A model generated the notes under the pieces. The model was not told the DNA's origin, made no database searches, and worked only from the letters and a program-made list of their open reading frames with translations. A stretch of 64,000 nucleotides of DNA from Muribaculaceae bacterium (GTDB taxonomy: Bacteria > Bacteroidota > Bacteroidia > Bacteroidales > Muribaculaceae): the NCBI GenBank assembly GCA_022484565.1, contig JAKVKZ010000004.1, positions 18,021-82,020 of the forward strand. Reading direction: 5' to 3'. Positions 19,106 through 37,030 of the stretch are shown here, piece after piece. Every line of letters starts with the position of its first letter. Positions within the stretch are counted from its first letter, which is position 1. Made by a program: the position numbers and the translations under genes.

Positions 19106-19136
19106 AAACAAAAAAGGCGCAAATTGATGCGCCTTT
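19106..19136 (-). terminator. Rho-independent terminator at the end of the PUL gene string
   Basis: aaaggcgc-N8-gcgccttt. On the minus strand it is followed by a TTTTTT run, 30 nt after the stop at 19166. Confidence 0.7.
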
Positions 19137-19165: not shown

Positions 19166-21793
19166 TTATTGCAGTACGATTTTTCTTGATAAGTTATCTA
19201 TGCGCATAATGTAAATTCCAGCTGAATTGCCGTTCATGTCAATGGTCTGCGAAGCTGCTGCCATATTCACTTCACTGGCAACTTGTCCTGTAACGGAATA
19301 TATCTTGATGGTTCTGCCCTCAGCGCCAGTAACCATAAATGACCTGTCGGAAATTTTTGTGATTTTCAGATTGTCCATTTCAGCACTCTTTATTCCCGAT
19401 GCCTTGCTGATGGAAATGGTCATGTCGTCGAGATTCACAGTCACATCGTAGCCATATTCAGCAGTGCCTGAAATGCTCCATTGATTGTCGCCGGATGAAT
19501 CTTCAGTGATTTTTGTGTTGTCGCTCGTGTTGCGGTAATACATCTTTTGCCCGTAACCAGCACGATTGTTTACGGCTATTTTGAATGTGCCTGCGGAAAG
19601 TTGCAGATGCTTGCCACTGAACTCAAATGGATTGCTTGCATTCTGCGTCAACAGCAGTGATTTGGTCAAATCCCATCCACCCGGGGTGGCTGAGCCGACA
19701 ATAAACAACTCATCGTGCAGAATTTTCTTGGCCTGATATTCAGCTTTTGTCGCAGTAACTGTGAGACTGTCGAGATTGCATACTATCGTGTAGTTGCCTG
19801 AAGTTGCAAGTTGAAACTTGGTATCGTTCACCTTGTCGTTAAGCACGAGTTTGCCAGTTCCATCAAGAATGGTGGCTCCGCCATTGTTGTATTGATCATC
19901 CCATGCAGCTTGGCAGAGGAATTTGAAATCCTTGTTGGCCTCCATCCAGCCCGTGTAAGTGAATGCGTGCGGAGCTTCCGAGGTGTTGTGCATCAGTGCT
20001 GCGTTGTCGTACGACCAGCCACCCCATGTGGCTTCGCCTACGACCATCAGTTTATCAGTGATTGCGTCCTCAATCACAAGCATATCCCAATATTTCAATG
20101 CCGGCACTGTCACGCTCACCACGCCGCCGGTTTGGGTGAATTCGAGCTGCTGCGGCACTCCTCCATTGTAGTCAGGCGATGCCACCCACACCTTTTCCAC
20201 TGTGGTGGAATGTCCAATTCGCAATGCTATCGCAGTCTGTTCGGCAGCTTCGGGCATTGTTCCGTCAGCATCGCGCCAACTTGTGCTATTGGCATTTATG
20301 AAATTGAGCAGATGCACTATTTCGCGTCCACCCACCTGTTTGCAGTAAGTGATGATTTTGCCTGTTTGAGGTGACCATGCGGCCACATTGTGCGTTGTGC
20401 TGGTAATATCGGGTGTGTTTTCTATTCCTCCGTCGCGAAGCACATTCTCGTAAGCGGTAAGGAAATCATAATAATGCGTTATCGATGTTTTTAGCTCATC
20501 ACTCATCTTCCGGCTGGCTGTAGGAAAATACTCGTTGGTAAGGATATGGTCGCCGCCAATTTCAAGATGTGTTCCGCCAAGGGCGAACATTGCTGCATCA
20601 GTGAGCAGCACTCCCGGTGTGTTGACGTAGCCATCGGTACCTGATAAATTGCGGTTGACGTATGCCGCAAACACCGTTTTCAATTTATTGCCGCTGAAAT
20701 TATTATTTGTGGCGATTATGTCACGCAGATTGCTGAAATCGCCTTGGTTTTCCCATAACTCGTTATAGAGAAAATCCACATTCCCCGTCTTGGCTATCTG
20801 TTCTTGACCATAACCACCGACGGCATTCATTACAAGATGCTTTGCTGGATGTGCGGTTTTCATGGCGTTGACGAACGAGCCGAAAGCGTCCATAACTTGA
20901 ATGTTTTTGCCCGAATAGTTGTACCAATTGCCTCGGTAGCCCAACTGGTCGATATGATAACCGTCGAAATCGAAATTGGCGTACACATCGTCGTTGTGCT
21001 GCGCAATATATGCCTGCCAGCCAGTGTTGCTCGGGTCGAGAAGATAAATGTTGCTCTTCCAGCCATTGAGAACATGCACATCTTTTGTTGTGTGGTTTTG
21101 GTCAGTAAAGGCGTACCATGTTTCCTGTACTCCATCGGCTGCCGCATCGTCGAGAGCACCGTAGCAGAGATTGTAGAACATTGATTTCATGCCGCGTGAA
21201 TGTTGGGCATTTATATAGTTCTTCACGACGCTGGTATATATTGTGCGGTTAGCTATATCGGTGTAGCTGTAGAGAGGTTTTTCACGTGTGCCTCCTAATG
21301 GCCAGTGATGTTTGTAATGCCAATCGTAGAACTGCACGCCATTGATGTGGCAGCGGCATAGCCAATCCATTTCTGTTGCCACCACGCCCGATGATTTGCT
21401 GCTGCCATAGTCGGCCACAAACCCATAGCGTGGGAATTGTGTCCAGTCGCTCGAAACATCGACGGCTATTGAGCCTAAAATAGTCTCATTGCCTTCGGCA
21501 TCTGCCTTATAGACGTCAACCATGTAGCCGGTGAAATCTTTCGATGGTGCCTGCCACGTCCAAGTCTTTGAGGTCAACACCTCCTCGCTCACCACATTGT
21601 CAAGATGCCTGTAGCGCACTTTGACGCCAGTCGGCAAATTGTCGATGGTAAACGTAACCGCATCACTCGGTGAATACATGGCTTTATCCGTGGATATGTT
21701 CACCGACAAATCCGAAGTCACACTTGAAGCGGCATTGACAGCGAAACAGCCGATTATTGCAGCTACCGCAAAAATTATCGTTCGTATGTTCAT
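19166..21793 (-). CDS. GH66-type dextranase fused to two SusE/F-like binding modules and a T9SS C-terminal sorting domain
   Basis: Signal peptide MNIRTIIFAVAAIIGCFAVNAASS. The catalytic region (CHINGVQFYDWHYKHHWPLGG, FDGYHIDQLG) is paralogous to 27226-29016. Module starts are LMVVGEATWGGWS and LFIVGSATPGGWD. The C-terminus IKIYSVTGQV...GIYIMRIDNLSRKIVLQ is a T9SS type-A CTD. The upstream ORF extension to 21856 overlaps a hairpin. Confidence 0.75.
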   Translation of the reverse strand: MNIRTIIFAVAAIIGCFAVNAASSVTSDLSVNISTDKAMYSPSDAVTFTIDNLPTGVKVRYRHLDNVVSEEVLTSKTWTWQAPSKDFTGYMVDVYKADAEGNETILGSIAVDVSSDWTQFPRYGFVADYGSSKSSGVVATEMDWLCRCHINGVQFYDWHYKHHWPLGGTREKPLYSYTDIANRTIYTSVVKNYINAQHSRGMKSMFYNLCYGALDDAAADGVQETWYAFTDQNHTTKDVHVLNGWKSNIYLLDPSNTGWQAYIAQHNDDVYANFDFDGYHIDQLGYRGNWYNYSGKNIQVMDAFGSFVNAMKTAHPAKHLVMNAVGGYGQEQIAKTGNVDFLYNELWENQGDFSNLRDIIATNNNFSGNKLKTVFAAYVNRNLSGTDGYVNTPGVLLTDAAMFALGGTHLEIGGDHILTNEYFPTASRKMSDELKTSITHYYDFLTAYENVLRDGGIENTPDITSTTHNVAAWSPQTGKIITYCKQVGGREIVHLLNFINANSTSWRDADGTMPEAAEQTAIALRIGHSTTVEKVWVASPDYNGGVPQQLEFTQTGGVVSVTVPALKYWDMLVIEDAITDKLMVVGEATWGGWSYDNAALMHNTSEAPHAFTYTGWMEANKDFKFLCQAAWDDQYNNGGATILDGTGKLVLNDKVNDTKFQLATSGNYTIVCNLDSLTVTATKAEYQAKKILHDELFIVGSATPGGWDLTKSLLLTQNASNPFEFSGKHLQLSAGTFKIAVNNRAGYGQKMYYRNTSDNTKITEDSSGDNQWSISGTAEYGYDVTVNLDDMTISISKASGIKSAEMDNLKITKISDRSFMVTGAEGRTIKIYSVTGQVASEVNMAAASQTIDMNGNSAGIYIMRIDNLSRKIVLQ

Positions 21794-21838
21794 TTTCAAT
21801 GTTTTGTTCCAGAAGTATTTGTCTGGAGATTTTTGAAA

Positions 21839-21861
21839 AGGGCGTGATTTTGGCACGCCCT
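21839..21861 (-). terminator. Hairpin with U-tract between the 326-aa gene and the long GH66 gene
   Basis: agggcgtg-N7-cacgccct, followed on the minus strand by TTTTC. A TACATTTG -7-like box (21869-21862) sits immediately upstream, so a terminator and a promoter may overlap. Confidence 0.5.
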
Positions 21862-21899
21862 CAAATGTATATTAAAACATAATTGCTCCGGAATTAAAA

Positions 21900-22880
21900 T
21901 TATTCCGTCACTACTTTCTGTGCGAAATTGCCGACGCGAACTATATAAAGTCCTGAAGTCAGCACGCTCATATCAATTGCCTCGTTTGCTGAAGCCACCT
22001 TAATGGTCTTCACGATTTGTCCTGTGGCTGAATACACGTTCACTGCTTGTCCTTCAGCGCCTTTCACGGCTATAGTCCTTGGTGATGCCATGAAAACCTT
22101 AACACTGCCCTGAGCCACCTTTGCAACTCCTGTCACGTGCTTAGCAATGGAGATGCTGCTATTTTCGAGGTCAACGGTGATGTCGTAATCGCCTGCTTCA
22201 GTTATTCTCCATTGGTTGTCGCCGAGTGAACTGTCGCTGGTCAACTTAGTTGAATCGGTGGTAACGCAATAGTACATCTGCTGGCCGAAACCTGCATATT
22301 TGTTGATGGCAATCTTGAATGTACCAGCTGCCAATGCCACGATAGAGGCTGAGAACACAAATGGCTTTGAGGCATCTGCAATTGTCAATGGAGTTGCATT
22401 CGCAAGTGTCCATCCACCCGGTGTGGCGCTGCCGACAAGGAACAGAATATTATGCTTTATAGCTTTTTCCTGATATGCAGCTTTCACTGCTGTTACCGTC
22501 AGATTAGCAAGGTCAGCGGTCACTGTGTAATTGCCCGATTCAGCTACTTGGAAATGGTTGTCGGTGCCGTTCTGTACCAAAGTATCCACTGCACTTATCA
22601 CTCCTGTCGCTGATTTGCGCACATATTCACCGTCATTGGTATCTGATTTCCATGCGGCTTGACACAGAAACTTGAAGTCCTTGCCTGCTTCCAGCCAACC
22701 TGTATACACGAAAGTGGTTGGAGTAGTGGCATTTTGAATCATCAGGGCTGAATTGTCGTACGACCAGCCGCCCCATGTTGCATCTCCTACAAGCATCAGT
22801 TTGTCAGTCGTGGCGTTTGCATTTGCTGCACCTATAAGAAGTGCTGCTGCAAATAATGTTGTTGTAATTTTATTGAACAT
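21900..22880 (-). CDS. T9SS-sorted protein made of two SusE/F-like glycan-binding modules
   Basis: Signal peptide. Module starts are LMLVGDATWGGWS and LFLVGSATPGGWT. The CTD is VNVYSATGQIV...GLYIVRVGNFAQKVVTE. The whole protein aligns with the C-terminal half of 19166-21793. Confidence 0.7.
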   Translation of the reverse strand: MFNKITTTLFAAALLIGAANANATTDKLMLVGDATWGGWSYDNSALMIQNATTPTTFVYTGWLEAGKDFKFLCQAAWKSDTNDGEYVRKSATGVISAVDTLVQNGTDNHFQVAESGNYTVTADLANLTVTAVKAAYQEKAIKHNILFLVGSATPGGWTLANATPLTIADASKPFVFSASIVALAAGTFKIAINKYAGFGQQMYYCVTTDSTKLTSDSSLGDNQWRITEAGDYDITVDLENSSISIAKHVTGVAKVAQGSVKVFMASPRTIAVKGAEGQAVNVYSATGQIVKTIKVASANEAIDMSVLTSGLYIVRVGNFAQKVVTE

Positions 22881-22936
22881 AATGATTTAATATTTAGGTA
22901 AATGTTAGTAATTGATTCTTTTGATGATTTCCAAAA

Positions 22937-22965
22937 GGCAAAAGGCCATTCAGCGACCTTTTGCC
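22937..22965 (-). terminator. Rho-independent terminator after the 570-aa gene
   Basis: ggcaaaagg-N11-ccttttgcc. On the minus strand it is followed by TTTTGG. Confidence 0.65.
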
Positions 22966-22982
22966 CATAAGGAAATGAACGG

Positions 22983-24695
22983 TTATTCTGCAATAACCTT
23001 TTTGGTTGCTGCCCCAACACGGATTATATAAAGGCCCGGATTTTCAATTTCAATAGCTTGCGAGGCACTGGCTGATTTTATAGTTTTCACCAGTTGGCCA
23101 AGAGTTGAATACACGTTCACTGCACTGCCTTCAGCACCATTCACCACAAAGGTGCGTGATGAGACACGTGCTATCTTCACATTGTCAGAAATGCGGTTGG
23201 CATTTACTCCCGAGGCTTTCTTAATTGAAATCGTCATATTTTCAATGTCGGCTGTAACAATGTATTTGGCCGTTTCGGCTATTTCCCACTGATTATCAGC
23301 AGTCATGTCGTTGGTCATCTTCGTCGCATCGTTTCCGTCACGTAGGAACCACACTTGAGCATCATTGCCTGTGCTGTAATCGCCATATTTGTTTGTGGCG
23401 ATTTTGAATGATCCAGCCATCAATGAGTCGGTTGCAGTGAAAATGAATGGATTTGTCGCATCCTGCACCATTCCCGTACCTCCATTCAGACTTACTCCGC
23501 CTGCTGTAGCTGTACCTACCATATAGAGTTCGTTGTAATAAATCGGTTTTGTCTGATAGGCAGCTTTCATTGCTGAAACGGTATTGTTCAGAAGGTCGCA
23601 CGAAATGGTATAGTTGCCTGCTTCAGCCACTTGAAACTTATTGTCGGTGCTGGCTTTTGTGGAATTGAGCGTAATTGGACTTATCGCACCGGATGCGTCA
23701 AGAATTGTAGGTTCAGAAGCGCTGTTGTATTGGAATCCGTCATTATATGAGGATTGGCACATGAACTTAAAGTCCTTCGACGCGTCAAGATAGCCCGTGA
23801 AATTGAATGTTGTGGAAGTTCCAGCGTCAGGCAGCATCACATAGGCCTTGTTGAGAGTGTAGCCGCCAAAAGTGGCCTCACCAATCACCAATAATTTGTC
23901 AGGCGTGGTTGGAACCATGGAAATAGTCTTTGCGGCAATGTCAACCGTGACTTTGTAAAGGCCAGGAGTGGAGATTGTCCATTGATTGTCGCCTAGTGAA
24001 CTGTCGTCGGTGATTTTAGATGCATCCGATAAATCGCGGAAAAACCATTCTTGGTCACTATAGCCCGCATACTTGTCGGCAGTCAGTTTGAATGTTCCTG
24101 CGGAAAACAGCACATTGCCCGAGAACAGGAAAGGATTGCCCGAAGGGTCAGCTTGGCTTATGAGCGAAGCATTGTCGAGCGACCAGCCTCCAGGTGTGGC
24201 ACTTCCGACGAGGAAAAGTTGGTTGAAATAGATTGGACTGCTCTGATATGCCGATTTTACCGCCGTGATTACGTTGGTGGTGAGATTACAAGTAATAGTG
24301 TAGTTGGCACTCTCAGGGAGAATGAATTTTGCATCGGTGATGCCGTCATTCTTCACCAGTGTTCCGCTGTAGGAGCCTTCACTTCCGGCAAGCACGCCAG
24401 TAGTTCCTGCACCGTTGTTGTACTCGTCGATACCTGAATCGTTGGCACGGTCACGAAATCCGTTCTGGACATCGGTCACAAATTTGAATTCCTTGTTGCC
24501 CTGCATCCAACCTGTATAAACGAACACAGTGTCGGATGTGAAATTCGGAACCATCAATGATGATTTCGACAACGACCAGCCGCCCCATGTGGCATCACCC
24601 ACAATGAACAAGCGGTTGGACATGGCATTGGCAGTTGCAGCTCCGCAAAGCAGCAAGCCGGCCATGAATAAGTTCATAAGATAATTTTTAATCAT
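22983..24695 (-). CDS. T9SS-sorted protein made of four SusE/F-like glycan-binding modules
   Basis: Signal peptide. The four module starts are LFIVGDATWGGWS, LFLVGSATPGGWS, LLVIGEATFGGYT and LYMVGTATAGGVS. The CTD is VNVYSTLGQLV...GLYIIRVGAATKKVIAE. Confidence 0.7.
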   Translation of the reverse strand: MIKNYLMNLFMAGLLLCGAATANAMSNRLFIVGDATWGGWSLSKSSLMVPNFTSDTVFVYTGWMQGNKEFKFVTDVQNGFRDRANDSGIDEYNNGAGTTGVLAGSEGSYSGTLVKNDGITDAKFILPESANYTITCNLTTNVITAVKSAYQSSPIYFNQLFLVGSATPGGWSLDNASLISQADPSGNPFLFSGNVLFSAGTFKLTADKYAGYSDQEWFFRDLSDASKITDDSSLGDNQWTISTPGLYKVTVDIAAKTISMVPTTPDKLLVIGEATFGGYTLNKAYVMLPDAGTSTTFNFTGYLDASKDFKFMCQSSYNDGFQYNSASEPTILDASGAISPITLNSTKASTDNKFQVAEAGNYTISCDLLNNTVSAMKAAYQTKPIYYNELYMVGTATAGGVSLNGGTGMVQDATNPFIFTATDSLMAGSFKIATNKYGDYSTGNDAQVWFLRDGNDATKMTNDMTADNQWEIAETAKYIVTADIENMTISIKKASGVNANRISDNVKIARVSSRTFVVNGAEGSAVNVYSTLGQLVKTIKSASASQAIEIENPGLYIIRVGAATKKVIAE

Positions 24696-24716
24696 AATTC
24701 TATTGTTTTGGTCTTG

Positions 24717-27215
24717 TTAATAATTAATTTCTATGTTTGTTTCTTTGCCTGTATCAGCAAGCCGCACTGAACATGCGCCTTTTGTTTTGTCCCATGTCCA
24801 TGTAGCGGAGTCGGCTGTTTTAGCATTAGCGTTTCCGAACTTGTCGGCACTGATTTTCTTCACTTTCACTCCGCCAATCATTACTGATTTTGGCGCGTAT
24901 GGCATATACACTTCCATAATCTGGCTCCGCTGCGGCACTTCATAGCCTTTACCCTGACGGGCACTTACCGCTATGGAATATTTACAGATTTCGCTTGAGC
25001 AGGCGATAGGCGTTTTTGCCCACTGCTCACGCAAGTAGCCCAAGTCATTACCATTGTCCTCATAAAGAGTGAACGAGCATTTGCCGCCATTTTCAGCGGG
25101 GAATATCTGATAAGTCACAGCGCAGTTCTTATGTTCATTGCTATAGTTCATTGCCGGCATTGTGGGGATTATCGACCCCTGCTTGACGAACATCGGCACT
25201 ACGCTCAATGGAGCATCCACAGTGACAAAACTTCCGCCTGCATAAATGGTGCGTTTGTCGTTATAATTTATCCATTTCCCTTCGGGCAAATAAAGATTAC
25301 GGGAAACCGCGCCCTTCTTCACCACAGGAGCCACCAGCAGCTGGTCGCCGAGCATGAATTGCTCATCGCAAGAGTAGGTTTCGGCATCGGATGGATATTC
25401 AAGCATCATGGCGCGCATTATCGGGAGTCCCGTGTCGTGTGCCTCACGCGCAAAAGTGTAAATGTAAGGCAGCAATGTGTATTTCAGTTCAATTGCCTTA
25501 CGCACATTCTTTTCGGCTTCCTCTCCGAATAGCCATGGCTCAACGGCATTGTTGCCTTCATGATGAATGCGGCTCAGCGGTGTGAACGCCCCCATCTGAA
25601 CCCAACGGGTATATAGCTCCGCCATAGCTGGATAGTCATGAATATCTCCACAATAGCCAGAAATATCGCAAGTGGTGAACGGCATCACTCCAAGTCCATC
25701 GGAAAGCAGAACTGGAATTTGATTTGCCATCTGTTGCCAGCCTTGTAGCACATCATCGCCATTGCCGCTGTCGCCTGTCCACCCGAAAGTGTAACGTTGA
25801 GCGCCTGCGAATGTGGAGCGCGTCATCTGGAACGGCCGGAGGCCTGGATTGCGCTTTTCAAACTGCTCTTTCACAACTTTATTCCAATTTAAGCCATACA
25901 CATTGTGGATTTCAGCGTGAGTGCCAGCATAATGCCTCATCAGCAGACGCTCAGGCTGGTCTTCGTTGCTCCATGCAGGTTCGCCCATGTCGGTCCAAAA
26001 TCCGTCAACTCCATCGCTAATGGATTTTTGCTGATATTGTCCCCACCAATCGGCCACAGCGGGCAAAGTGAAGTCAACCACCCCGCAATTTCCGCCCCAT
26101 GGCCAAGGCATGTCATAACTTTTGCCGGTGCGCACGTCCTTGGCAAAATATCCGAGGCTGTCGGCCTCGTGCCATTGCACCTTATTGCTCTGCGAAACCA
26201 CAGGGTCCTGCGACACAATGACATGGAATCCCATTTTGTGCAGGTCGGCCAACATACCTTTCGGGTCGGTATAATTTGCCCTTTTCCAGTTGAAATCCTG
26301 AAGATATTCCGTCCAACCGATATCCTGATAGATTATGTCGCATGGAATGCCACGTTTGCGGTAACCTTCGGCAATTTCGCGTGTCAACTTCTCATTTGTC
26401 AGCAGTCCGCGGCATTGGGCAAAGCCCATCGCCCAACGTGGCGGCATAATTGGCGAGCCTGTCAATTGAGTGTATTGACCGATAATATCCTTGTAGTCCT
26501 TTCCATAGATGAAATAATAAATCATCTCGCCGTCAGGTACTTCAAAACTGTAATATTCACGATTTTCCGTGCCGAACTTGAATTCGGTCTTATAGGTATT
26601 GTCGAGGAATATGCCGTAATGGTAATTGCTCATGAAGAAAGGTATGCTTTTGTAGAGAGGATCTTCCGTTGTGCTGTAGCACGGACGGTCGCTGTTCCAC
26701 ATCTTATAGCTCTCGCCACGGCGGTCGAGTTTCCCCGTCTTCTCGCCAAGCCCGAAGAAATGCTCATCGCGCCGCATAGTCTTGTTTTCCACCTTCTGAG
26801 TGCCTTTGATGATGTGTCCCTTGTCGGTGAAATCACTGAAAATCAATTTCTGATATTTATCGAATATCTGAATGCTCATGGGCGATTTATTCACCCTGAT
26901 GCGCAATTTTGACGTGAATATTTCATAGCATGAAGTCTGATTGTCCACACTGACCGTCCCCACATCCTCCAATGCCTCATTCACGACGGCAAAAGATGGA
27001 TTGGAACGCTTCAATGAGCCATCGGCCGACAGCCACATTCTTATCATCGACTGGCTGCAAAGCTTCATTTGCAGCGCGGAATTATCGTCCATACGGAATG
27101 TCACCTCATTGCCACTTGCGGCAAAGGAAGTGCAGTTGATTGCCTGGGCTTCGGTAAAGGCCGCCATTACGACGGCCAGTATCAAAACCGCTAAATCTTT
27201 CTTACCGAAATTCAT
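24717..27215 (-). CDS. Glycoside hydrolase family 31 alpha-glucosidase
   Basis: 832 aa with a signal peptide. The GH31 catalytic region is GVDGFWTDMGEP (WxDMxEP nucleophile motif), and the length is typical. Confidence 0.8.
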   Translation of the reverse strand: MNFGKKDLAVLILAVVMAAFTEAQAINCTSFAASGNEVTFRMDDNSALQMKLCSQSMIRMWLSADGSLKRSNPSFAVVNEALEDVGTVSVDNQTSCYEIFTSKLRIRVNKSPMSIQIFDKYQKLIFSDFTDKGHIIKGTQKVENKTMRRDEHFFGLGEKTGKLDRRGESYKMWNSDRPCYSTTEDPLYKSIPFFMSNYHYGIFLDNTYKTEFKFGTENREYYSFEVPDGEMIYYFIYGKDYKDIIGQYTQLTGSPIMPPRWAMGFAQCRGLLTNEKLTREIAEGYRKRGIPCDIIYQDIGWTEYLQDFNWKRANYTDPKGMLADLHKMGFHVIVSQDPVVSQSNKVQWHEADSLGYFAKDVRTGKSYDMPWPWGGNCGVVDFTLPAVADWWGQYQQKSISDGVDGFWTDMGEPAWSNEDQPERLLMRHYAGTHAEIHNVYGLNWNKVVKEQFEKRNPGLRPFQMTRSTFAGAQRYTFGWTGDSGNGDDVLQGWQQMANQIPVLLSDGLGVMPFTTCDISGYCGDIHDYPAMAELYTRWVQMGAFTPLSRIHHEGNNAVEPWLFGEEAEKNVRKAIELKYTLLPYIYTFAREAHDTGLPIMRAMMLEYPSDAETYSCDEQFMLGDQLLVAPVVKKGAVSRNLYLPEGKWINYNDKRTIYAGGSFVTVDAPLSVVPMFVKQGSIIPTMPAMNYSNEHKNCAVTYQIFPAENGGKCSFTLYEDNGNDLGYLREQWAKTPIACSSEICKYSIAVSARQGKGYEVPQRSQIMEVYMPYAPKSVMIGGVKVKKISADKFGNANAKTADSATWTWDKTKGACSVRLADTGKETNIEINY

Positions 27216-27225
27216 TGTATCACTA

Positions 27226-29016: not shown

Positions 29017-29034
29017 TTCCTTATTTGATTTAAT

Positions 29035-29075
29035 ATGATGTGGCTGCGGCCTGCTAATATTCGCAGCCACATCAT
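29035..29075 (-). other. Strong intra-operon hairpin between the SusE-like and GH66 genes
   Basis: atgatgtggctgcg-N13-cgcagccacatcat forms a 14-bp perfect stem. There is no clear U-tract. Confidence 0.6.
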
Positions 29076-29084
29076 CCGTTATAT

Positions 29085-30575
29085 TTATTGCTTGACTATT
29101 GATATTGTCTCCTTAAGTTGGTTGAGGGTGATGATGTAAGTGCCTGCTGTGGCTATCTTCCACTTCATATCCACGTCACCTATGGCAACATCAGGATACA
29201 TTGCCTTGAATGTGGCATCACTCTTGTCAACGAACACTGCATTTTCAACGCCTCCTGTAGGCGCCTTATCTGAAGCATCGGCCATAAACCATGCACCCAT
29301 CCAGTCGCTCTTCTTGTCGCATGAAATCTTCATTTCACCTGCCTTCAAGGCTCCAGTCCATGTGAACAAGTAAGGATTGCTTGCATCGGCAGTCATGGCG
29401 GTGGCGCTGCTGAGTGTCCAGCCATTAGGCGTTGCGTCGCCTACGAGATAAAGTCCGGCATAAGGAGTGAACGGCGTCATCACCATCTTCTCGCTGCCAA
29501 TGGTCACGTCAAGCATAATCTTGTAGGCTTTGCCGCATTGCGCTTCAGTAAGTGCCCACTTGTTGTCGTTGCTGCTGTTGTACACCACTACGGTGCTTGT
29601 GTAAGGAGCGCCTGCGCTCGATGCGACAAGCATATTGTCCCAACTGCCGCTTACAGTACCGAACTTGAATTCGCCTGAACCGTTCCATGTGAACATTTCA
29701 CCATAATGCCAAAGATTCTTGCGAAGAACGTCCTTGGTCATTCTCACGAAGCCCCAGTTAGTGAACGAACCTACGAAATAGACATCATTGAAACGTTCGC
29801 CCGAAGCTGTTGATTTTGCAACTGTACACGTCATTTTCAGAAGGTCAACTTTCACTTCATAATTGCCAGCCGCGGTTACTGTGAAACCTTCATCAGCCTC
29901 GCTGTCGCTTGAACGGTAAACGAGTCCCGTGCCTGCGGCGTTGTTGGCATCGCGGTTATATGATGGGATTAGGCTTCCTTTAGTGGTGATGAACTTGAAC
30001 GTGCCGGCTGTGAGCGGGCCAATCCAAGTGAATTGACCGGCATCGGTGCGGGTCATGCTGATTGCTTTGGAAGCATCAGTACCTGCATTTGTGGCACTGC
30101 CCATGATGAACAATGTGCTGGTAACCGGCTGATATGTGGTTACTGCGATATTGGCTTCCGACGTTTGTGTCTTATCGGTGTAACCAGCCACATCAGCTAT
30201 CACTTTGGCATTCACATTCACAGTTTCGCCATAACCTATTCCAAGTTTTTCAGCAAGATAAGTGTTCAAATCGCCCACGGTTTTCGACCATTTGTAAACT
30301 CCGTTGCCGATGGTATCATTATATGTGTTCCCATTGGCGGAAAATTGCAGCACATAATTGATTTTGTTACCAGTTCCGTAGTTTGTGCCTGTGGTCCACT
30401 CCAAAGTCAGGCCATCCGCACTGTGATTGGCCTCGGTAAGCGTCAATTGCGTTGCCGACGGAGTGAGAGTGAGCGTGTCGCTGCCTTTGTCAAGTTCCAT
30501 GAAATCACTTGAACATGCCGTGGCAAACATGCTCGCCACAATCATCAAGGCAATTCTAAAAATATATTTTTTCAT
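29085..30575 (-). CDS. SusE/SusF-like outer-membrane glycan-binding lipoprotein
   Basis: Lipobox MIVASMFATAC. The N-terminal SusE-like region is ..LTLEWTTGTNYGTGNKINYVLQF... Three modules follow: LFIMGSATNAG, VYFVGSFTNWG and LYLVGDATPNGWT. Its position directly after susD is typical. Confidence 0.7.
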   Translation of the reverse strand: MKKYIFRIALMIVASMFATACSSDFMELDKGSDTLTLTPSATQLTLTEANHSADGLTLEWTTGTNYGTGNKINYVLQFSANGNTYNDTIGNGVYKWSKTVGDLNTYLAEKLGIGYGETVNVNAKVIADVAGYTDKTQTSEANIAVTTYQPVTSTLFIMGSATNAGTDASKAISMTRTDAGQFTWIGPLTAGTFKFITTKGSLIPSYNRDANNAAGTGLVYRSSDSEADEGFTVTAAGNYEVKVDLLKMTCTVAKSTASGERFNDVYFVGSFTNWGFVRMTKDVLRKNLWHYGEMFTWNGSGEFKFGTVSGSWDNMLVASSAGAPYTSTVVVYNSSNDNKWALTEAQCGKAYKIMLDVTIGSEKMVMTPFTPYAGLYLVGDATPNGWTLSSATAMTADASNPYLFTWTGALKAGEMKISCDKKSDWMGAWFMADASDKAPTGGVENAVFVDKSDATFKAMYPDVAIGDVDMKWKIATAGTYIITLNQLKETISIVKQ

Positions 30576-30596
30576 TGTAAGCTAACTTATTAAAGA

Positions 30597-32099
30597 TTAA
30601 TATCCAGGATTCTGTGTCATTAATGGATTCGAGTCTATTTCCGTCTGTGGAATCGGCAGGAGCAACCTCTCGGCAGTAACATTCGACTTGCCGATTGATT
30701 TCAGGAACGACAGCGCATATTCGCCATTGTTGATACGAATCATGTCGAACCAACGATGTCCTTCGAATGCGAATTCCATGCGGTTCTCATGAATAATCAT
30801 ATTGCGGAGTTCCGATTGGGTAACTGTGTTTGGAATGTCGCCAAGACCAGCACGTTCACGCACAATATTGATTGGCTTTACAGCCTCGGTGGTACTGCCC
30901 ATCTCATTCAACGCTTCTGCCTTCATCAGCAGGACTTGTGCATAACGATAGACAACGAAATTCTCGTCGCTGGTGTTGTACTCCGCCGACTGGTTCTTTG
31001 TCATCAAGAACTTGCGGACATTGTAACCGGTATTCGACCATGAGGACTTGTAAGCGTTGCCGTCGAACTTCGGGCAACCGTCATACAGAACTGTTATGTC
31101 CTTGCGCTTATCGCCTGCTTCCCATTGACTCATGAATTCATCGGTAGGCAAGTTCCAGCCGTAACCACCGGCAACGATATTGGAATTGCGTGGTCCCATG
31201 AAAGTGGAAAGCCATGAGGACTGATTGTCCGTTGCCCAAAAATCATAATCAGTGCTGCCTGAATATTGCACTTCAAATATGGATTCAGGGCCATTCTTGT
31301 CCTTACCGTTGAAATTGTCGGCAAAACTGCATTGTGTAAGGTCGTAACCGAGAGCCTCTATCTGGTTACAAAGTGAAACTACTTCATTATAGTATTCTTT
31401 ATTATTAGGTGCGAGCGTGAGATACACATCGGCAAGCTGCGTCAATGCAGCATCCTTGCAGGCACGGCCCAAATCCTTATCGCCATATTCGCTCTTTGCA
31501 GGCAGCAAGGCTATTGCATTCTGAAGGTCGGAGATAATCTGCGCATACACTTCTTCCTTGGTGCTACGGGCTATAGATGTGCTTGTACCCGGTTCGTATG
31601 GTTCAAGGCGCAATGGCACACCGCCGAAAAGACGCACCAGAATGTAATAGTAATGGGCACGGAGGAAATAAGCCTCACCCATCGAGCGGTTCTTCACCGA
31701 CTCGCTGATATTGGCATTGGGAAGGCTTGTCAGGATGATGTTGCAACGTCCGATTCCCACCCAAGGTGAGCGCCACACATAAAGTGCATATTCGCTATCA
31801 GTGTGGGTTATGAAATTGGATGCCTGCACGGTTTCAAGTCCGTCAGTTCCGCCACCTGCACCCACAACGCTGTTGCCGGCAATAATGTCGGTACACCATA
31901 GGCGCATATTGTACAGGTTCGACGACTGCAACGGCTTGTAGCAGGCATTAGTTAAGGCCATGGCCATTGAATCGGTCATTGTGGTTGACGGATCCACGGC
32001 ATAACTTGGCGATTTATCGAGAAAATCCTGACATGAAGCAAGCATCAAAAGTGCCGCAACAAATATCGTATTTAATATTCTATTTTTCATTTTCGTCAA
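30597..32099 (-). CDS. SusD/RagB-family nutrient-binding lipoprotein
   Basis: Lipobox LLMLASCQDFLDKSP. TPR-like SusD hallmarks (..AYFLRAHYYYILVRLFGGVPL..) and the C-terminus ..RLLLPIPQTEIDSNPLMTQNPGY are present. Confidence 0.85.
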   Translation of the reverse strand: MTKMKNRILNTIFVAALLMLASCQDFLDKSPSYAVDPSTTMTDSMAMALTNACYKPLQSSNLYNMRLWCTDIIAGNSVVGAGGGTDGLETVQASNFITHTDSEYALYVWRSPWVGIGRCNIILTSLPNANISESVKNRSMGEAYFLRAHYYYILVRLFGGVPLRLEPYEPGTSTSIARSTKEEVYAQIISDLQNAIALLPAKSEYGDKDLGRACKDAALTQLADVYLTLAPNNKEYYNEVVSLCNQIEALGYDLTQCSFADNFNGKDKNGPESIFEVQYSGSTDYDFWATDNQSSWLSTFMGPRNSNIVAGGYGWNLPTDEFMSQWEAGDKRKDITVLYDGCPKFDGNAYKSSWSNTGYNVRKFLMTKNQSAEYNTSDENFVVYRYAQVLLMKAEALNEMGSTTEAVKPINIVRERAGLGDIPNTVTQSELRNMIIHENRMEFAFEGHRWFDMIRINNGEYALSFLKSIGKSNVTAERLLLPIPQTEIDSNPLMTQNPGY

Positions 32100-32102
32100 T
32101 TT

Positions 32103-35100
32103 TTAAAAATTAAAGTTTACACCAAGGCTAAATGTCCTCGAAATTGGATAGCGGCTGCTGTCGATGCCATTGATAGCCACCTCAGGGTCGAATCCGGAAT
32201 AACTTGTTATTGTGACCACATTCTCACATGAGAAATAAACCTTTGCGCTGTTGAACTGAATTTTCTTCAGCAAAGCCTGCGGCAAGTTATAAGCAAGAGT
32301 GATGTTTTTGAGGCGCAGATAAGAGCCATTTTCGATAAATCTGTCGGAAACGCGCGAGTTTTGGTTCGGGTCGCCCCACACTGCACGTGGCATTGAATTG
32401 CTTGTGCCTTCGCCAGTCCAGCGTTTTAGCACTTCTGACGTCTGATTATATGCGGCTGCCATACCTTCATTGTCAATGTTGTTGGCATTGTAAATGTCGT
32501 TGCCTGCCACGCCCTGGAAGAATATTGATAATTCAAGCCCGTGATAAGTGAATGTGTTGTTCATTGAGAACAGCCAATCGGGATTAGGATTTCCTATTAC
32601 CGTACGGTCCTTATCATTAATTACGCCATCATTGTTGAGGTCCTTGAAGCGGATGTCACCTGGTTCAGCACCAGCTTGGGTGGCATGGTTGGCAACCTCT
32701 TGGGCATTCTGGAAAATGCCGTCGGTGACATAGCCATAGAACACATTGATTGGGTAATCTTTGGCAAGCATTGTCAAATAGGAGTTGTTCACCTGATTGA
32801 TATACATCGGCGTGTCGCTGTTCAAATCCTTTATGCGGTTGCGGTTGTAAGTAGCCGTAACACTTGTTTCCCAACCGAATTCACCTTGCAGGTTAACCGT
32901 ATTGAGCGACATTTCCACACCTCTGTTGCTGACTTTGCCTGCATTTGTGTAAGTGGTGAATGTGTCCTCAAATCCTGATGTGATTGGGATTGTGGCCTTC
33001 ACAAGCATGTCGTGGGTATTCTTGATATAAGCATCAAGTGAGAAATTCAGCCTTGAACGGAACATCGACAAATCTATACCGATGTTTGCCTGGCGGACTT
33101 CCTCCCAATGAATGCTCGGATTGCTTAGCGTGTTGGAGACGAGAGCCGCCTGACTTGATCCGTTGAAAGGATAGACGCTCGTGTTGTAAGTGGCAAGGAA
33201 AGCATAGTTTCCGATGTTCTGATTACCAGTCACACCGTAGCCTACACGGAGTTTCAAATCGTTGATGTTCCATGCGTCCTTTTGGAAGAAGCTTTCTTCA
33301 GATATTCTCCATGCTGCCGAAACCGACGGGAAAGTACCCCAACGGTTGTCCTTTCCAAATCTGGAGGAACCGTCGCGACGTACAGTGGCTGTAAGCAGAT
33401 AGCGGTTATCATAGCTGTAATTTACACGTCCCATGAAGGAAAGCAGTGACCAATCACTTGCACTTCCGCCAATGGAATACATCTTCTGGCCATTGTCCAT
33501 CTCATGGATATTGTCGAAAAGGAAGATGTTCTTCTGTGCATTCAGGTAATCGAAGTTGCACCATTGTGCCGATGTTCCGGCCATAACCTCAATGTGGTGT
33601 TTCTGCGCGAATGTGTAATCGCTAAGGAAATAATTATCCCACAAATAAGTGAACGACTTGTTGTCGCTCTTGTAGCGTGATGACTGGCTTACAGGTGTAG
33701 GCGACCAATTATATTTAGGAGTGAAATTGTCGATGAACCACCATTTGGCATCATAGCCGAATGTGCTGCGGAGTTTCAGCCAATTGGTAAAGGAGATTTC
33801 CCCCATTATGTTGGCAAGGAGATTATAACCTTTAGTGTCGTTCTTGTTCACGTTGATTGTGCCTATCGGGTTACGGATGCTGCCGTACCAGTAGGAATTG
33901 CCTGAAGGGCCGGCATAAGTTCCGTCCTCATTGTAGATTGCCTGCGTCGGCAGTGCCTTCATGGCATCACCCACGCTGTAACTGCCGTGTTTCTTCAAAT
34001 CGGCGCTGAACGTAACGCTCGTGGTCATTTTCAGCCATGGCTTCACTTGAGCGTCGTTGTTGACTTGGAAATTGAATCGGCGGTATTTCACACTTTGAAT
34101 TATACCTGTCTGGTCAAGGAAACCGCCGGAAATGTAATATTGATTCTTGTCGGAACCTCCGGAATAGCTTACTGAATAATCCTGCTTGAAACCGGTGCGG
34201 AACATTTCATCAAGCCAATCAGTGCCTGCCGTCAACGATGTTGGGTCAGCCCACTCAGGATTGGTGGTGTAACCTGCATTTGAAAGCATATCATTGCTCA
34301 ATGCCGCATATTGCTGCGCATTAAGCATAGTGGGCATACTCGTGGCATTCTGCACTGCCCAGTTGCCGGAGAACTGAATTCGGCCATCACCTTTTTGGCC
34401 ACGTTTAGTGGTAATCATCACCACGCCGTTGGCACCACGCGAGCCGTAAATGGCTGTTGCCGATGCATCTTTAAGCACATCCACGCGGTCAATATCAGCC
34501 ATATTCAATGATGTAATGCCTAAATCAGTAGGAATACCATCTATTACGTAAAGCGGGTCACTGTCGTTGATTGTGCCCAAACCACGGATTTTAATGGTGA
34601 CATTATCACCTGGAGTGCCGGCATCCACAACGTTTACGCCACTGAGTTTGCCTTGAAGTGCCTGACCGACATTTGAAAGCGGACTGCTTTGCAAATCCTT
34701 CTTCCCTACTGATGCCACAGCACCAGTCAAATCCTTCTTTTTCATTGTGCCGTAGCCAACCACAACCACTTCATTAAGCACTTGTGAATTGTCCTTCAAT
34801 TCAATCATTAATTGAGTCTGACCATTGACTTTCACTTCCTGTGTGGTACAGCCCAAATAGGAGAAAGTCAACACTGCCTTAGGAGAAGCTTTCAAGGAGA
34901 AATTACCGTCCATGTCAGTGGCAGTACCGTTTTTAGTGCCCTGTTCCAACACAGTCGCACCGATAATCGGTTCACCCGAAGCATCCTTCACGTGCCCCGT
35001 CACAGTAATTTCCTGTGCGAACACATTCACAGCCATCAGCAATCCAAGCGCAAGGCTCAGAAAGCGCAACTTTGAATTTAGAGATTTGTAATTCTTTTTG

Positions 35101-35105
35101 TCCAT
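32103..35105 (-). CDS. SusC/RagA-family TonB-dependent outer-membrane transporter
   Basis: 1000 aa. The carboxypeptidase-regulatory-like N-terminus is ITVTGHVKDASGEPIIGATVLEQGTKNGTATDMDGNFSL. The plug region is ..ALQGKLSGVNV..IRGLGTIN.., and the protein has a terminal F. Confidence 0.9.
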   Translation of the reverse strand: MDKKNYKSLNSKLRFLSLALGLLMAVNVFAQEITVTGHVKDASGEPIIGATVLEQGTKNGTATDMDGNFSLKASPKAVLTFSYLGCTTQEVKVNGQTQLMIELKDNSQVLNEVVVVGYGTMKKKDLTGAVASVGKKDLQSSPLSNVGQALQGKLSGVNVVDAGTPGDNVTIKIRGLGTINDSDPLYVIDGIPTDLGITSLNMADIDRVDVLKDASATAIYGSRGANGVVMITTKRGQKGDGRIQFSGNWAVQNATSMPTMLNAQQYAALSNDMLSNAGYTTNPEWADPTSLTAGTDWLDEMFRTGFKQDYSVSYSGGSDKNQYYISGGFLDQTGIIQSVKYRRFNFQVNNDAQVKPWLKMTTSVTFSADLKKHGSYSVGDAMKALPTQAIYNEDGTYAGPSGNSYWYGSIRNPIGTINVNKNDTKGYNLLANIMGEISFTNWLKLRSTFGYDAKWWFIDNFTPKYNWSPTPVSQSSRYKSDNKSFTYLWDNYFLSDYTFAQKHHIEVMAGTSAQWCNFDYLNAQKNIFLFDNIHEMDNGQKMYSIGGSASDWSLLSFMGRVNYSYDNRYLLTATVRRDGSSRFGKDNRWGTFPSVSAAWRISEESFFQKDAWNINDLKLRVGYGVTGNQNIGNYAFLATYNTSVYPFNGSSQAALVSNTLSNPSIHWEEVRQANIGIDLSMFRSRLNFSLDAYIKNTHDMLVKATIPITSGFEDTFTTYTNAGKVSNRGVEMSLNTVNLQGEFGWETSVTATYNRNRIKDLNSDTPMYINQVNNSYLTMLAKDYPINVFYGYVTDGIFQNAQEVANHATQAGAEPGDIRFKDLNNDGVINDKDRTVIGNPNPDWLFSMNNTFTYHGLELSIFFQGVAGNDIYNANNIDNEGMAAAYNQTSEVLKRWTGEGTSNSMPRAVWGDPNQNSRVSDRFIENGSYLRLKNITLAYNLPQALLKKIQFNSAKVYFSCENVVTITSYSGFDPEVAINGIDSSRYPISRTFSLGVNFNF

Positions 35106-35368
35106 GTAAGATTGGTTTATAAGTGTAAATTAATTGGCTATTTATTGGTTTATGCTCTGTTTTCAGCTACACAGCAACCCGTGCTGACTTTGAAAACTCA
35201 CGATGCAAATTTATTTATCAAATCCTCACCTTTTATATATAGTTAGTCAAAATATAGTGAATCAGAACATCCGAATTTAGATATTCTGCTATTTTTCAGG
35301 TATTTACCCTTAAAAGTGCAATTAAAAAAAGTAGTGGAAGTTTAAAGTTTTTCCATAGAAAATTCCTT

Positions 35369-37030
35369 TCAAAATCCAATTTTCATCACTTTATCCTCAA
35401 ATTCTTCACGCTCGCCGATGGCTTTGTTGCGGATTCGCGTGCGGTAATTGTATATTGTGGTCACTGAATAGCGCAGGAACTGTGCTATCTTCACACTGTC
35501 GGTGATGCCAAGACGGATAAGGGCATAAATTCTCAATTCAGTATTTAGGGCATCCGGCGTTTTAGGGTATATTTTTTCTCCGTCGCAGAGAAGTTTATTA
35601 AAGTCGTCAACAAAATTCGGGAACAGGCGCAGGAAAGTCTCGTCGAAATTGCTATAGAAATCCTTCAATTCATGGTCGATTAACGCTGTTGATTTCACGG
35701 CTTCGGCAAGTTTGGTCATATTGTGGCTCGCCACAATCTTAAAGAGCATTTTCCTGTAAGTCTCGAATTTCTCTATATAGGTGGAGCACTGGTCCATATA
35801 TCGCCCGATATATTCCTCCTTAATCACATTGGTTTCAGTAAGGATGTCATTAGTCTGCTTCAATCGCTCATTCGACGTGTTCAACTCCTTATTCACCTCC
35901 ACAAGTGTGGCATTAAGGGCACTGAGTTCATCGTTCGCAGAATGCAGATTTTGCCTTGCGACACTCAATTTGCGCATTTGTCGGAACACGAAGAATATAG
36001 TGATTATCAGAAAAATAGATAACACACTTATGGCGAAAAGTCCAATTACTATGTTTCTCTTCTGTTCCTCTTTTTTCTGATTATAGGCATTATCAACAAT
36101 AGGGAAAATATCGCCTATTTCTATTGTGCGCATCCGCGCGTTGCACTCTTTGGCATCCTCCATGGAACAGCGCAGATACTTATATGCGTGGTCAACATCG
36201 CCTTCATGGTAAAGCAGATTGGCAAGTTGGCGAAGCGAAACGTATTCCTTCACAGCCGACTGCAAATCGTTGATGGAAGAAAGTGCAAGGTTGCGCTCCT
36301 CTTCCTCTACATTTCCTTTACCTTTATATATTTGAGCCAATGAATAGGTGAAAAATGCACGGTTATGGTCGCTCTCCTTCAATTTGCTCATCACAGAATT
36401 TATCATCTTAATGGCTTCATCATAACGCTTTTCTACAACCAGTTTTTCAGCCATTATGACGATATACTCATCTGTCTTCAAAGCGAGCAGCGAATCCCGA
36501 TATTGCGCAGACAATCTGTTGTAAAGCTGCTTAACAGGCTCATTCACCGCATAGTCACCCATAAGTCCATAAGTGTTCTTGTGCAGATGGTAATAATATG
36601 GAATAAGATATTTAGGCACCGATTTACGGTTGACAGTGTTAAGCATATCAACAGCTTCTTTGAACATTCCTGTCAGGCTATAGATGTCGGCATAGTTAAG
36701 GCGGGAATCGCATAAAAGGTCAGAATCGCCCAATTTCTTTGCAATAGCCATTTTCAGTGAGGCATAGCGCATGGCAGAATCAGTGCGGTAAGAGCGGTAT
36801 TCATCAAACAATCGCCCATAATATCCATATCGTTGCCTCATATCTGTCGTTGTCGCCGCCAACCGCTTGTAATCATTAATTTTACGCTCTTTAATTTGAG
36901 CATATTTCGCCTTTTCGGCAATGGTGGCATCAAGCCTGTTAAGCAGCTCGTCCACACTCTCTTCAGCGAATATGGATTGCTGGCAAACGGCCAATAATAT
37001 TAATGTCAGTATTAATTTAAGTTTAATCAT
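35369..37030 (-). CDS. SusR-like transmembrane regulator (N-terminal TPR sensor, one TM helix, C-terminal HTH)
   Basis: 553 aa with a signal/anchor, TPR-like repeats, the TM helix IVIGLFAISVLSIFLIITIFFVF, a coiled coil and C-terminus LRIYALIRLGITDSVKIAQFLRYSVTTIYNYRTRIRNKA. It lies immediately upstream of susC. Confidence 0.65.
   Translation of the reverse strand: MIKLKLILTLILLAVCQQSIFAEESVDELLNRLDATIAEKAKYAQIKERKINDYKRLAATTTDMRQRYGYYGRLFDEYRSYRTDSAMRYASLKMAIAKKLGDSDLLCDSRLNYADIYSLTGMFKEAVDMLNTVNRKSVPKYLIPYYYHLHKNTYGLMGDYAVNEPVKQLYNRLSAQYRDSLLALKTDEYIVIMAEKLVVEKRYDEAIKMINSVMSKLKESDHNRAFFTYSLAQIYKGKGNVEEEERNLALSSINDLQSAVKEYVSLRQLANLLYHEGDVDHAYKYLRCSMEDAKECNARMRTIEIGDIFPIVDNAYNQKKEEQKRNIVIGLFAISVLSIFLIITIFFVFRQMRKLSVARQNLHSANDELSALNATLVEVNKELNTSNERLKQTNDILTETNVIKEEYIGRYMDQCSTYIEKFETYRKMLFKIVASHNMTKLAEAVKSTALIDHELKDFYSNFDETFLRLFPNFVDDFNKLLCDGEKIYPKTPDALNTELRIYALIRLGITDSVKIAQFLRYSVTTIYNYRTRIRNKAIGEREEFEDKVMKIGF

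Follow-up and report, generated by a model that had tools for sequence, protein, structure and literature searches.

The closest described relatives of the locus reported here are two dextran polysaccharide utilisation loci (PULs). PUL48 of Bacteroides thetaiotaomicron encodes a dextran utilisome, comprising the glycoside hydrolase family 66 (GH66) enzyme BT3087, the surface glycan-binding protein (SGBP) BT3088, called SGBPdex, and the SusD protein BT3089 (structures 9SJE and 8AA4; PMC13450635), and all of its surface parts are lipoproteins. In FjDexUL of Flavobacterium johnsoniae (Fjoh_4428-4435; PMC10316084) the genes run SusR, SusC, SusD, SusE/F, GH66, GH31, and this organism possesses a type IX secretion system (T9SS), yet no FjDexUL protein has been described as T9SS cargo (PMC10316084). 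T9SS cargo has been reported for PULs acting on other glycans. The yeast-mannan PUL52 of Bacteroides salyersiae encodes a lipoprotein GH76, a multimodular T9SS GH76/GH38 enzyme and two T9SS binding proteins, which stay with cells and vesicles (bioRxiv 10.1101/2022.07.15.500217), and an endo- and exo-acting enzyme of the F. johnsoniae chitin locus, ChiA, is exported through the T9SS by means of its C-terminal domain (PMC5127042). A transcriptome study of rumen Prevotellaceae placed proteins matching the T9SS sorting model TIGR04183 outside PULs and did not assign them a role (PMC11107044).

Here we describe a nine-gene locus of Muribaculaceae bacterium GCA_022484565.1, at positions 19166-37030 of a 64,000-nt stretch (the window) of contig JAKVKZ010000004.1. 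We consider it rather probable that this is a dextran (alpha-1,6-glucan) utilisation locus carrying, in addition, an outer layer exported by the T9SS, in an uncultured gut member of the family. The window belongs to one contig (C4) of a metagenome-assembled genome (MAG) of 2.95 Mb in 93 contigs, 82.5% complete, which is the sole member of its genus in the genome collection that we compared. Its G+C content and T9SS had at first suggested a Prevotella, but this was rejected, since a genome of its family (G170) shares 100% identity over 3.7 kb with a contig of a MAG labelled Muribaculaceae.

The dextran-type core and the three distal genes

Nine co-oriented open reading frames (ORFs), all on the minus strand, fill the stretch in the 5' to 3' order SusR, SusC, SusD, SusE/F, GH66A, GH31, T9_570, T9_326 and GH66B, the last three names being our labels for the distal genes. 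Products were named from Pfam and NCBIfam profile matches with family cut-offs. The locus is flanked by housekeeping genes (GcpE, PurE, a GDSL lipase and a YfhO-like protein), and its boundaries at 19166 and 37030 are therefore right. Pfam annotation of the locus proteins returned neither GH13 nor GH97.

The upstream six genes resemble the described dextran systems throughout. A SusR-family glycan utilisation regulator of 553 aa, with tetratricopeptide repeats and DUF6377 (35369..37030; NF058541 608 bits, cut-off 480; PF19904), precedes a SusC-type TonB-dependent transporter of 1000 aa (32103..35105; TIGR04056 992 bits), which aligns end to end with the SusC of the B. thetaiotaomicron dextran utilisome (8AA4/9SJE) at 1676 bits. 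The SusD-type lid lipoprotein (30597..32099; PF07980, PF14322) scores 836 bits against the SusD of 9SJE, and the next-best SusC or SusD structures fall far below the utilisome chains. The SusE/F-type surface glycan-binding lipoprotein (29085..30575; PF14292, PF16411) appears as the orthologue of BT3088 SGBPdex, with 552 bits and its residues 1-496 aligned to residues 1-504 of 9SJE chain E. GH66A (27226..29016) is a predicted lipoprotein endo-dextranase (NF052487 882 bits, cut-off 730; PF13199 677 bits) whose IDQVG and YNEVW motifs align with D297 and E360, the catalytic residues of BT3087 (PMC13450635). Its reading frame is open up to GTG 29070, but the protein has 596 aa in public assemblies, and the start is probably ATG 29016 (MKRTFF, 596 aa), the longer ORF limit being over-extended. 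The GH31 enzyme (24717..27215; PF01055, PF13802, PF21365) is most like FjDex31A, the dextranase of this family that FjDexUL encodes (6JR6; 1164 bits). By eye, lipoboxes were read in SusD (LASC), the SGBP (ATAC) and GH66A (LTAC), while the N-terminus of GH31 reads as a type-I signal. Homology places the core with the dextran PULs of B. thetaiotaomicron (PUL48) and F. johnsoniae (FjDexUL), and the profile, utilisome and FjDex31A matches bear out what a first-pass annotation of this DNA had proposed for these six genes.

The three genes that follow encode products of a different kind. T9_570 (22983..24695; 570 aa) consists of a putative signal peptide, four SusF_SusE-type modules resembling carbohydrate-binding modules (CBMs) and arranged as two pairs, and a type-A T9SS C-terminal sorting domain (CTD) (PF16411 four times; TIGR04183 26.3 bits). 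T9_326 (21900..22880; 326 aa) has a putative signal peptide followed by a single module pair and a type-A CTD (PF16411 twice; TIGR04183 29.4 bits, PF18962 28.4 bits), and GH66B (19166..21793; 875 aa) places a GH66 domain between its putative signal peptide and the same arrangement of module pair and type-A CTD (NF052487 871.5 bits, PF16411 twice, TIGR04183 26.8 bits, PF18962 31.3 bits). All three are matched by TIGR04183 at their very C-termini, above the cut-off of 23 bits, in line with the earlier claim that three distal same-strand products carry type-A CTDs; the profile searches which that annotation had suggested as a check, for GH66, GH31, PF16411 and TIGR04183, found all four families in the locus. 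The N-termini, again by eye, look like Sec signals ending in ..TANA, ..ANANA and ..AVNA before MS, TT and AS, respectively. The GH66B frame remains open up to GTG 21856, inside a hairpin at 21838..21862, and public gene calls give 875 aa; ATG 21793 is probably the start.

The repeated unit of the modules is a pair of ~100-residue units, and module pair plus CTD share 42-50% identity among the three distal proteins. The only PDB sequence matches of the modules are to BT3088 SGBPdex (E=6e-20 for T9_570, against 9SJI; E=5e-12 for the tail of GH66B). We modelled T9_326 with AlphaFold (AF2) from a 9-row alignment, obtaining a mean predicted local distance difference test (pLDDT) of 74, with domains mostly at 80-93. 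In the model, two beta-sandwich modules, structurally closest to SusF, SusE and the X25 alpha-glucan-binding domain of R. bromii, precede a CTD (residues 258-326, pLDDT 83-89) that Foldseek matched to its counterpart in T. forsythia mirolase (8QB1; prob 1.00, target TM 0.65, rmsd 3.0); the modelled C-terminal sandwich also matches PorZ. From this homology the distal modules would be specific for dextran, and the sequence comparisons support the view that all three distal genes encode type-A CTD proteins directed at the glycan of the PUL. That these proteins are aimed at the locus's own substrate had also been put forward from the first reading, and it agrees with the presence of a second GH66 and with the homology between the modules and the BT3088 SGBPdex CBMs.

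Origin, conservation and relatives of the distal genes

The catalytic part of GH66B scores 721 bits against BT3087 (9SJG) and 595 bits against FjGH66 (8IU8), and its IDQLG and YNELW motifs align with D297 and E360 of BT3087. The earlier identification of one distal product as a second GH66 was thus correct, both at the level of the family profile and in the retention of the catalytic Asp and Glu. GH66A and GH66B are 59-62% identical over the full domain, and a maximum-likelihood tree built from 16 GH66 domains places them as sisters (ultrafast bootstrap, UFboot, 94; approximate likelihood-ratio test, SH-aLRT, 98), whereas the GH66-module fusions of other genomes fall into separate, well-supported clades. 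Because the two enzymes of the locus are each other's closest relatives in the tree and the other fusions stand apart, GH66B appears to be a duplicate of the PUL's own GH66 that arose within the lineage and then gained the module pair and CTD. Arrival of GH66B together with the other GH66-module fusions (P0008-10, L002, L060, L061) is ruled out by the same topology, and by these sequence comparisons similar fusions arose independently elsewhere.

The locus is not confined to a single assembly. Identical T9_326 protein is encoded on 12 contigs, eight JGI/Logan contigs show 98.6-100% identity to the window, and the locus occurs in at least eight independent metagenomes, in which contigs reaching past T9_326 keep the gene order as far as they extend. 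An assembly chimera is ruled out by the same gene order in at least eight samples. Against the 98.6%-identical variant contig L068, the ratio of nonsynonymous to synonymous polymorphism (pN/pS) was 0.04 for GH66A, 0.25 for GH31 and 0.10 for T9_570, and T9_570 is under purifying selection.

Two further observations were made on this variant. Two single-G insertions split T9_570 in L068 (L068:5140-6854, corresponding to 22983-24695 of the window), where it is called as 460 + 111 aa, which may reflect either strain-level loss of the binder or a sequencing or assembly error. Divergence between window and variant is concentrated from GH66A to T9_570 (synonymous divergence, pS, 0.04-0.09), whereas T9_326 (21900-22880) shows 0 differences and the 5' part of GH66B (20909-21793) only 1. 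This near-identity beside a diverged GH66A-T9_570 segment points to a boundary near 22900 left by a recent recombination event or sweep.

Within the length range searched, only 16 proteins of a 5.8-billion-protein index match the tail module at E<=1e-5, among them GH66-module and module-GH31 fusions. Of 300 sampled Muribaculaceae, 69 have module matches and 34 have GH66 (70/301 and 35/301 with the MAG included). A search with a 5-row module alignment also gave related loci. In genome G199, a SusR-SusC-SusD-SusE/F-GH66-GH97 core is followed by a 299-aa module protein, a 1217-aa protein built of a module, a region without assignment and a CTD (PF18962, 48.8 bits), a 449-aa module-CTD protein and a second GH66. 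In two other family genomes (G021, G125) and two Bacteroidales MAGs (L020, L021), a CTD-tagged GH31 and module-CTD proteins stand beside a SusR-SusC-SusD-SusE/F-GH66 core, while G067 and G298 encode GH66-module fusions with no adjoining SusC/D. Counting L020 and L021 again, dextran PULs of other Muribaculaceae or Bacteroidales that carry CTD proteins include those of L054/L059, L062, L063, L020 and L021. The exact set of a four-module binder, a two-module binder and a GH66 with two modules and a CTD was seen in this species only, among the loci examined. By the evidence of these gene neighbourhoods, the association of a dextran-type PUL with putative T9SS proteins recurs across Muribaculaceae and our locus is not a one-off.

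Three classes of proteins in these relatives are described here in their own right. Many alpha-glucan PULs of Muribaculaceae and oral Prevotella end in genes for proteins of ~290-315 aa made of a signal peptide, one SusF_SusE pair and a conserved 35-40-residue tail (L016:9923-10807, L018:9923-10807, L044:13432-14358, L054:4488-5387 and ~40 similar genes in family genomes). The tail has the consensus ..YYxLxGxxVxxPxxGvyvxxxxGxxxKVxxK and resembles the last two strands of a type-A CTD; it is not detected by PF18962 or TIGR04183, and our own CTD hidden Markov model is less sensitive than TIGR04183, its null on these short-tailed proteins meaning little. Several Muribaculaceae alpha-glucan loci also encode, after a 300-aa module gene, proteins of ~1215 aa with an N-terminal module pair, ~900 residues without a Pfam match and a strong CTD (48.8 bits) (L054:675-4328, L041:15356-19001, L043:15128-18778, L046:15104-18781), whose centre is a candidate new enzyme or binder. 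Finally, the GH97-bearing SusR-SusC-SusD-SusE/F loci of Muribaculaceae have a 471-aa lipoprotein in the place that a surface GH13 (SusG) would normally take (L041:10543-11958, with equivalents in L042-L057). Since its sole Pfam match is Melibiase_C, a C-terminal sandwich of GH27/GH36 type, the surface enzyme of these loci is unannotated.

A broader and more tentative proposal would treat the SusE/F module pair as a portable cassette of Muribaculaceae and some Prevotella, joined repeatedly and independently to GH66, GH31, large domains without assignment, type-A CTDs and the short 35-40-residue tail, in genes placed at the ends of alpha-glucan PULs. Under this proposal the family would generally build a T9SS-delivered outer capture layer, anchored to lipopolysaccharide (LPS), over its lipoprotein utilisome, and the short tail would act as a sorting signal of a new, minimal type; we regard it as possible, with the balance of probability against it.

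Secretion machinery, transcription and rival explanations

The MAG encodes a SprA/Sov protein of 2482 aa (2746 bits), two PorU proteins (972 and 795 bits) and PorV (516 bits), and yields 90 TIGR04183 matches at E<=0.001, of which 81 exceed the cut-off, which puts the number of CTD proteins at about 85-90. Of the T9SS core components that the first-pass annotation had named for a check, Sov (SprA), PorU and PorV are present, whereas PorK, PorL, PorM and PorN were without match in this 82.5%-complete MAG, so that part of the core has been found. Weak matches of the GldK model TIGR03525 on contigs C69 and C31 were rejected as PorK, the proteins being unrelated and of the SUMF1/FGE-domain type. 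The same Por models score 200-570 bits in a same-family genome (G005), where porT-porP-porK-porL-porM-porN form one 7-kb block, and PorM occurs in 11 of 12 same-family relatives; on both grounds the simplest explanation of the absence of PorK/L/M/N/P from the MAG is one missing contig. Complete T9SS sets have been described in most genomes of the Muribaculaceae family (Ormerod et al., PMC4936053).

As a side observation on this genome, there are 91 ORFs ending in a CTD and 18 SusC-like genes; 26 of these ORFs are found no more than 12 kb from such a gene, where an even spread would give ~15 (examples at C5:20553-31614, C9:43934-57316 and C60:1-15212). By this count, T9SS cargo beside PULs seems usual in the organism and not peculiar to the dextran locus.

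Transcription signals were read from the sequence and from folding of the spacers; a default terminator scan missed all three hairpins described below, owing to its loop and T-run limits. A candidate PUL promoter, TAAATTTG, lies ~100 bp upstream of susC (35205..35212, minus strand) and matches TAnnTTTG, which we take to be the Bacteroidetes -7 promoter motif. Bacteroidota promoters differ from the sigma-70 type, and a sigma-70 promoter scan was uninformative (36 sites against 34 expected). T9_570 follows GH31 after 21 bp, and on this spacing it is almost certainly co-transcribed with the PUL. The gaps are wider downstream, 102 bp between T9_570 and T9_326 and ~106 bp between T9_326 and GH66B. 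The former holds a hairpin with a 13-bp stem followed by UUUU (22936..22966; -25.3 kcal/mol, z = -3.7), possibly a partial terminator or an RNA-stabilising element, and the latter a GC-rich 9-bp hairpin (21838..21862; -25.1 kcal/mol, z = -3.8), the 5' arm of which overlaps TACATTTG (21862-21869, minus strand), a perfect TAnnTTTG match. TACATTTG and this hairpin may form a terminator/promoter overlap that gives GH66B its own start, and T9_326 and GH66B may be read through, attenuated or separately started. A strong intrinsic terminator with a GGCGCA/UGCGCC stem and U-run (19106..19136; -35 kcal/mol, z = -5.4) ends the locus. The distal genes may be co-regulated with the PUL.

Several observations weigh against a dextran PUL with a T9SS-exported layer. 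The TIGR04183 scores of the CTDs are modest, at 26-29 bits, and PF18962 stays below its own cut-off for T9_570 (18.5 bits), though T9_326 and GH66B pass it. A lipobox-like IIGC can be read by eye in the N-terminus of GH66B, making a lipoprotein signal the alternative there, and identity between the distal modules and the CBMs of the SGBP encoded in the locus is just 27-35%. T9_570 and T9_326 are each followed by a stable hairpin with a short U-run, so that T9_326 and GH66B may be attenuated or transcribed on their own. Finally, searches of the 82.5%-complete MAG with TIGR03525, TIGR03513, TIGR03517, TIGR03523, PF12081 and PF11751 gave no PorK, PorL, PorM, PorN or PorP.

The alternatives that build on such observations differ in what they would change. 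If the T9SS cargo were released, in soluble form or on vesicles, and worked at a distance from the cell, dextran fragments would be a public good to be shared rather than the yield of a private capture layer. This is unlikely, though it has precedents in the soluble T9SS secretion of ChiA from a chitin PUL (PMC5127042) and in the recovery of B. salyersiae T9SS binders with outer-membrane vesicles, with oligosaccharides being shared (bioRxiv 10.1101/2022.07.15.500217), and GH66B has binding modules of its own, as free enzymes often do. The study of B. salyersiae, a gut Bacteroidales, however, detected no soluble activity and favours anchoring to LPS (bioRxiv 10.1101/2022.07.15.500217); the MAG has two PorU sortase genes, and the non-catalytic T9_570 and T9_326 would make little sense if they drifted off the cell. 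A less probable possibility, which we rate as low, is that the three distal genes form a separate unit outside PUL control, comprising adhesins that bind dextran or alpha-glucan and a matrix-cutting enzyme, which would serve attachment to, or invasion of, lactic acid bacteria exopolysaccharide more than nutrition. The hairpins and the 102-106-bp spacers before T9_326 and GH66B, with the TAnnTTTG-like motif before the latter, would fit such a unit, and module proteins and GH66-module fusions do exist elsewhere without adjoining SusC/D (L060, L061, L002). But the 21 bp between GH31 and T9_570 leave no space for a terminator or promoter, gene order is constant in every assembly of the species, relatives repeatedly place module and CTD genes at the ends of alpha-glucan PULs, and GH66B duplicates the enzyme that the PUL already has.

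It is quite improbable that the substrate is another alpha-glucan, such as starch, a pullulan-like polymer or a branched or mixed-linkage glucan of the alternan or reuteran kind, with the SusE/F-type modules serving starch-type binding. PF16411 was defined on the starch binders SusE and SusF, the best fold matches of the modules are starch binders, and a study of Muribaculaceae MAGs speculated that a GH66 PUL acts on starch (PMC8636109). These points are outweighed by the end-to-end match of four outer-membrane proteins to the dextran utilisome, far above any starch system, by two GH66 enzymes above the cut-off of the NF052487 EndoDexBT3087 equivalog model, by an FjDex31A-like GH31, by the lack of GH13 and GH97 in the locus and by SGBPdex as the only PDB sequence match of the modules. 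Hardly credible, lastly, is the notion that the CTDs are non-functional relics, the PorKLMN motor having been lost and the three proteins being periplasmic or not made. True matches to the PorK/L/M/N/P models are indeed lacking in the MAG, but the same models match strongly in the 7-kb block of the same-family genome, one assembly gap suffices to explain the lack in a MAG 82.5% complete, and PorM is present in 11/12 relatives. The 2482-aa SprA is intact and accompanied by two PorU, PorV and ~90 open reading frames with CTDs, and purifying selection on T9_570 equally argues against decay. We retain, as the probable reading, a dextran PUL with a T9SS-exported outer layer.

A working model and comparison with described systems

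In the model that we propose, a SusR-type sensor would act on a SusC/SusD transporter with its lipid-anchored SGBP and GH66 endo-dextranase, that is, a utilisome. The three distal proteins would be exported by the Sec pathway, cross the outer membrane through the T9SS (SprA/PorV) and lose their CTDs to PorU, a route of export and maturation predicted from their sequences. By analogy with P. gingivalis and B. salyersiae, the cargo would most probably stay on the surface of cells or vesicles bound to anionic LPS. There, T9_570 with its four modules and T9_326 with its two would capture high-molecular-weight dextran, and GH66B would pre-cut polymer held away from the membrane, on the outer face of the cell or of vesicles. 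Fragments would then pass to the lipoprotein SGBP, GH66A and SusD on SusC for import, after which GH31, presumably in the periplasm, would degrade the isomalto-oligosaccharides, and oligosaccharides would signal through SusR.

Muribaculaceae are dominant in the mouse gut. Lactic acid bacteria make dextran and isomalto-oligosaccharides as exopolysaccharides, and both serve as prebiotics too. How a lipoprotein utilisome, regarded as selfish, is combined with secreted and possibly shared enzymes in gut Bacteroidales that bear a T9SS is only beginning to be studied, and this locus offers a compact natural test case, with the same enzyme and module families present in lipid-anchored and CTD-tagged versions within one operon-like unit. 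The reference structures from B. thetaiotaomicron and the variant architectures in relatives would allow tests of what is gained through the T9SS, be it reach for large polymers, vesicle loading or cross-feeding. The locus leaves the accepted view of PULs and of the T9SS as it was.

Compared with B. thetaiotaomicron PUL48, SusC, SusD, SGBP and GH66 are homologous end to end (GH66 at >700 bits), the same catalytic Asp and Glu are present, and both systems have a SusR-type regulator and a GH31; the present locus adds to the lipoprotein surface parts of PUL48 three CTD-tagged proteins, including a second GH66. Under the cut-offs used, the B. thetaiotaomicron genome, taken as a control, gave no T9SS match. 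FjDexUL has the same gene order from SusR to GH31 but goes on with periplasmic GH97 and GH65 for branched dextran, where our locus goes on with T9SS-type binders and a T9SS-type GH66.

The modules themselves have their prototype in SusE and SusF of the B. thetaiotaomicron starch system (4FE9, 4FEM), in which PF16411 modules form beta-sandwiches of ~100 residues, as in T9_570, T9_326 and GH66B. SusE and SusF, however, are N-terminally lipidated and have an Ig-like SusE domain first, whereas the three distal proteins have neither this domain nor a lipobox of SusE/F type and end in a CTD.

With respect to export, the F. johnsoniae chitin locus shares with ours a SusC/D-locus enzyme that depends, or in our case would depend, on a C-terminal domain for T9SS passage, but ChiA is released in soluble form, the substrate is chitin, the host is an aerobic soil bacterium and no T9SS binding proteins are involved. 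The nearest design is B. salyersiae PUL52, also of a gut Bacteroidales, which combines a lipoprotein endo-enzyme, a multimodular T9SS-tagged paralogue of the same GH family and two non-catalytic T9SS-tagged binders, as does our locus. PUL52 acts on alpha-mannan through GH76 and GH38, and its binders are of 138-240 kDa with Big-2 and other domains, whereas those of our locus, of 33-60 kDa, are short chains of SusE/F-type modules, with homology to the lipoprotein SGBP of the same PUL.

The first-pass annotation had considered the hybrid undescribed for alpha-1,6-glucan use. For dextran this stands, in that no publication met in our literature search connects dextran or GH66 PULs with the T9SS, but the design as such is published for mannan in B. 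salyersiae and for chitin in F. johnsoniae. A PUL with T9SS cargo is thus already known; what is new here is the dextran substrate, the occurrence in Muribaculaceae and the use of SusE/F-type modules as putative T9SS binders.

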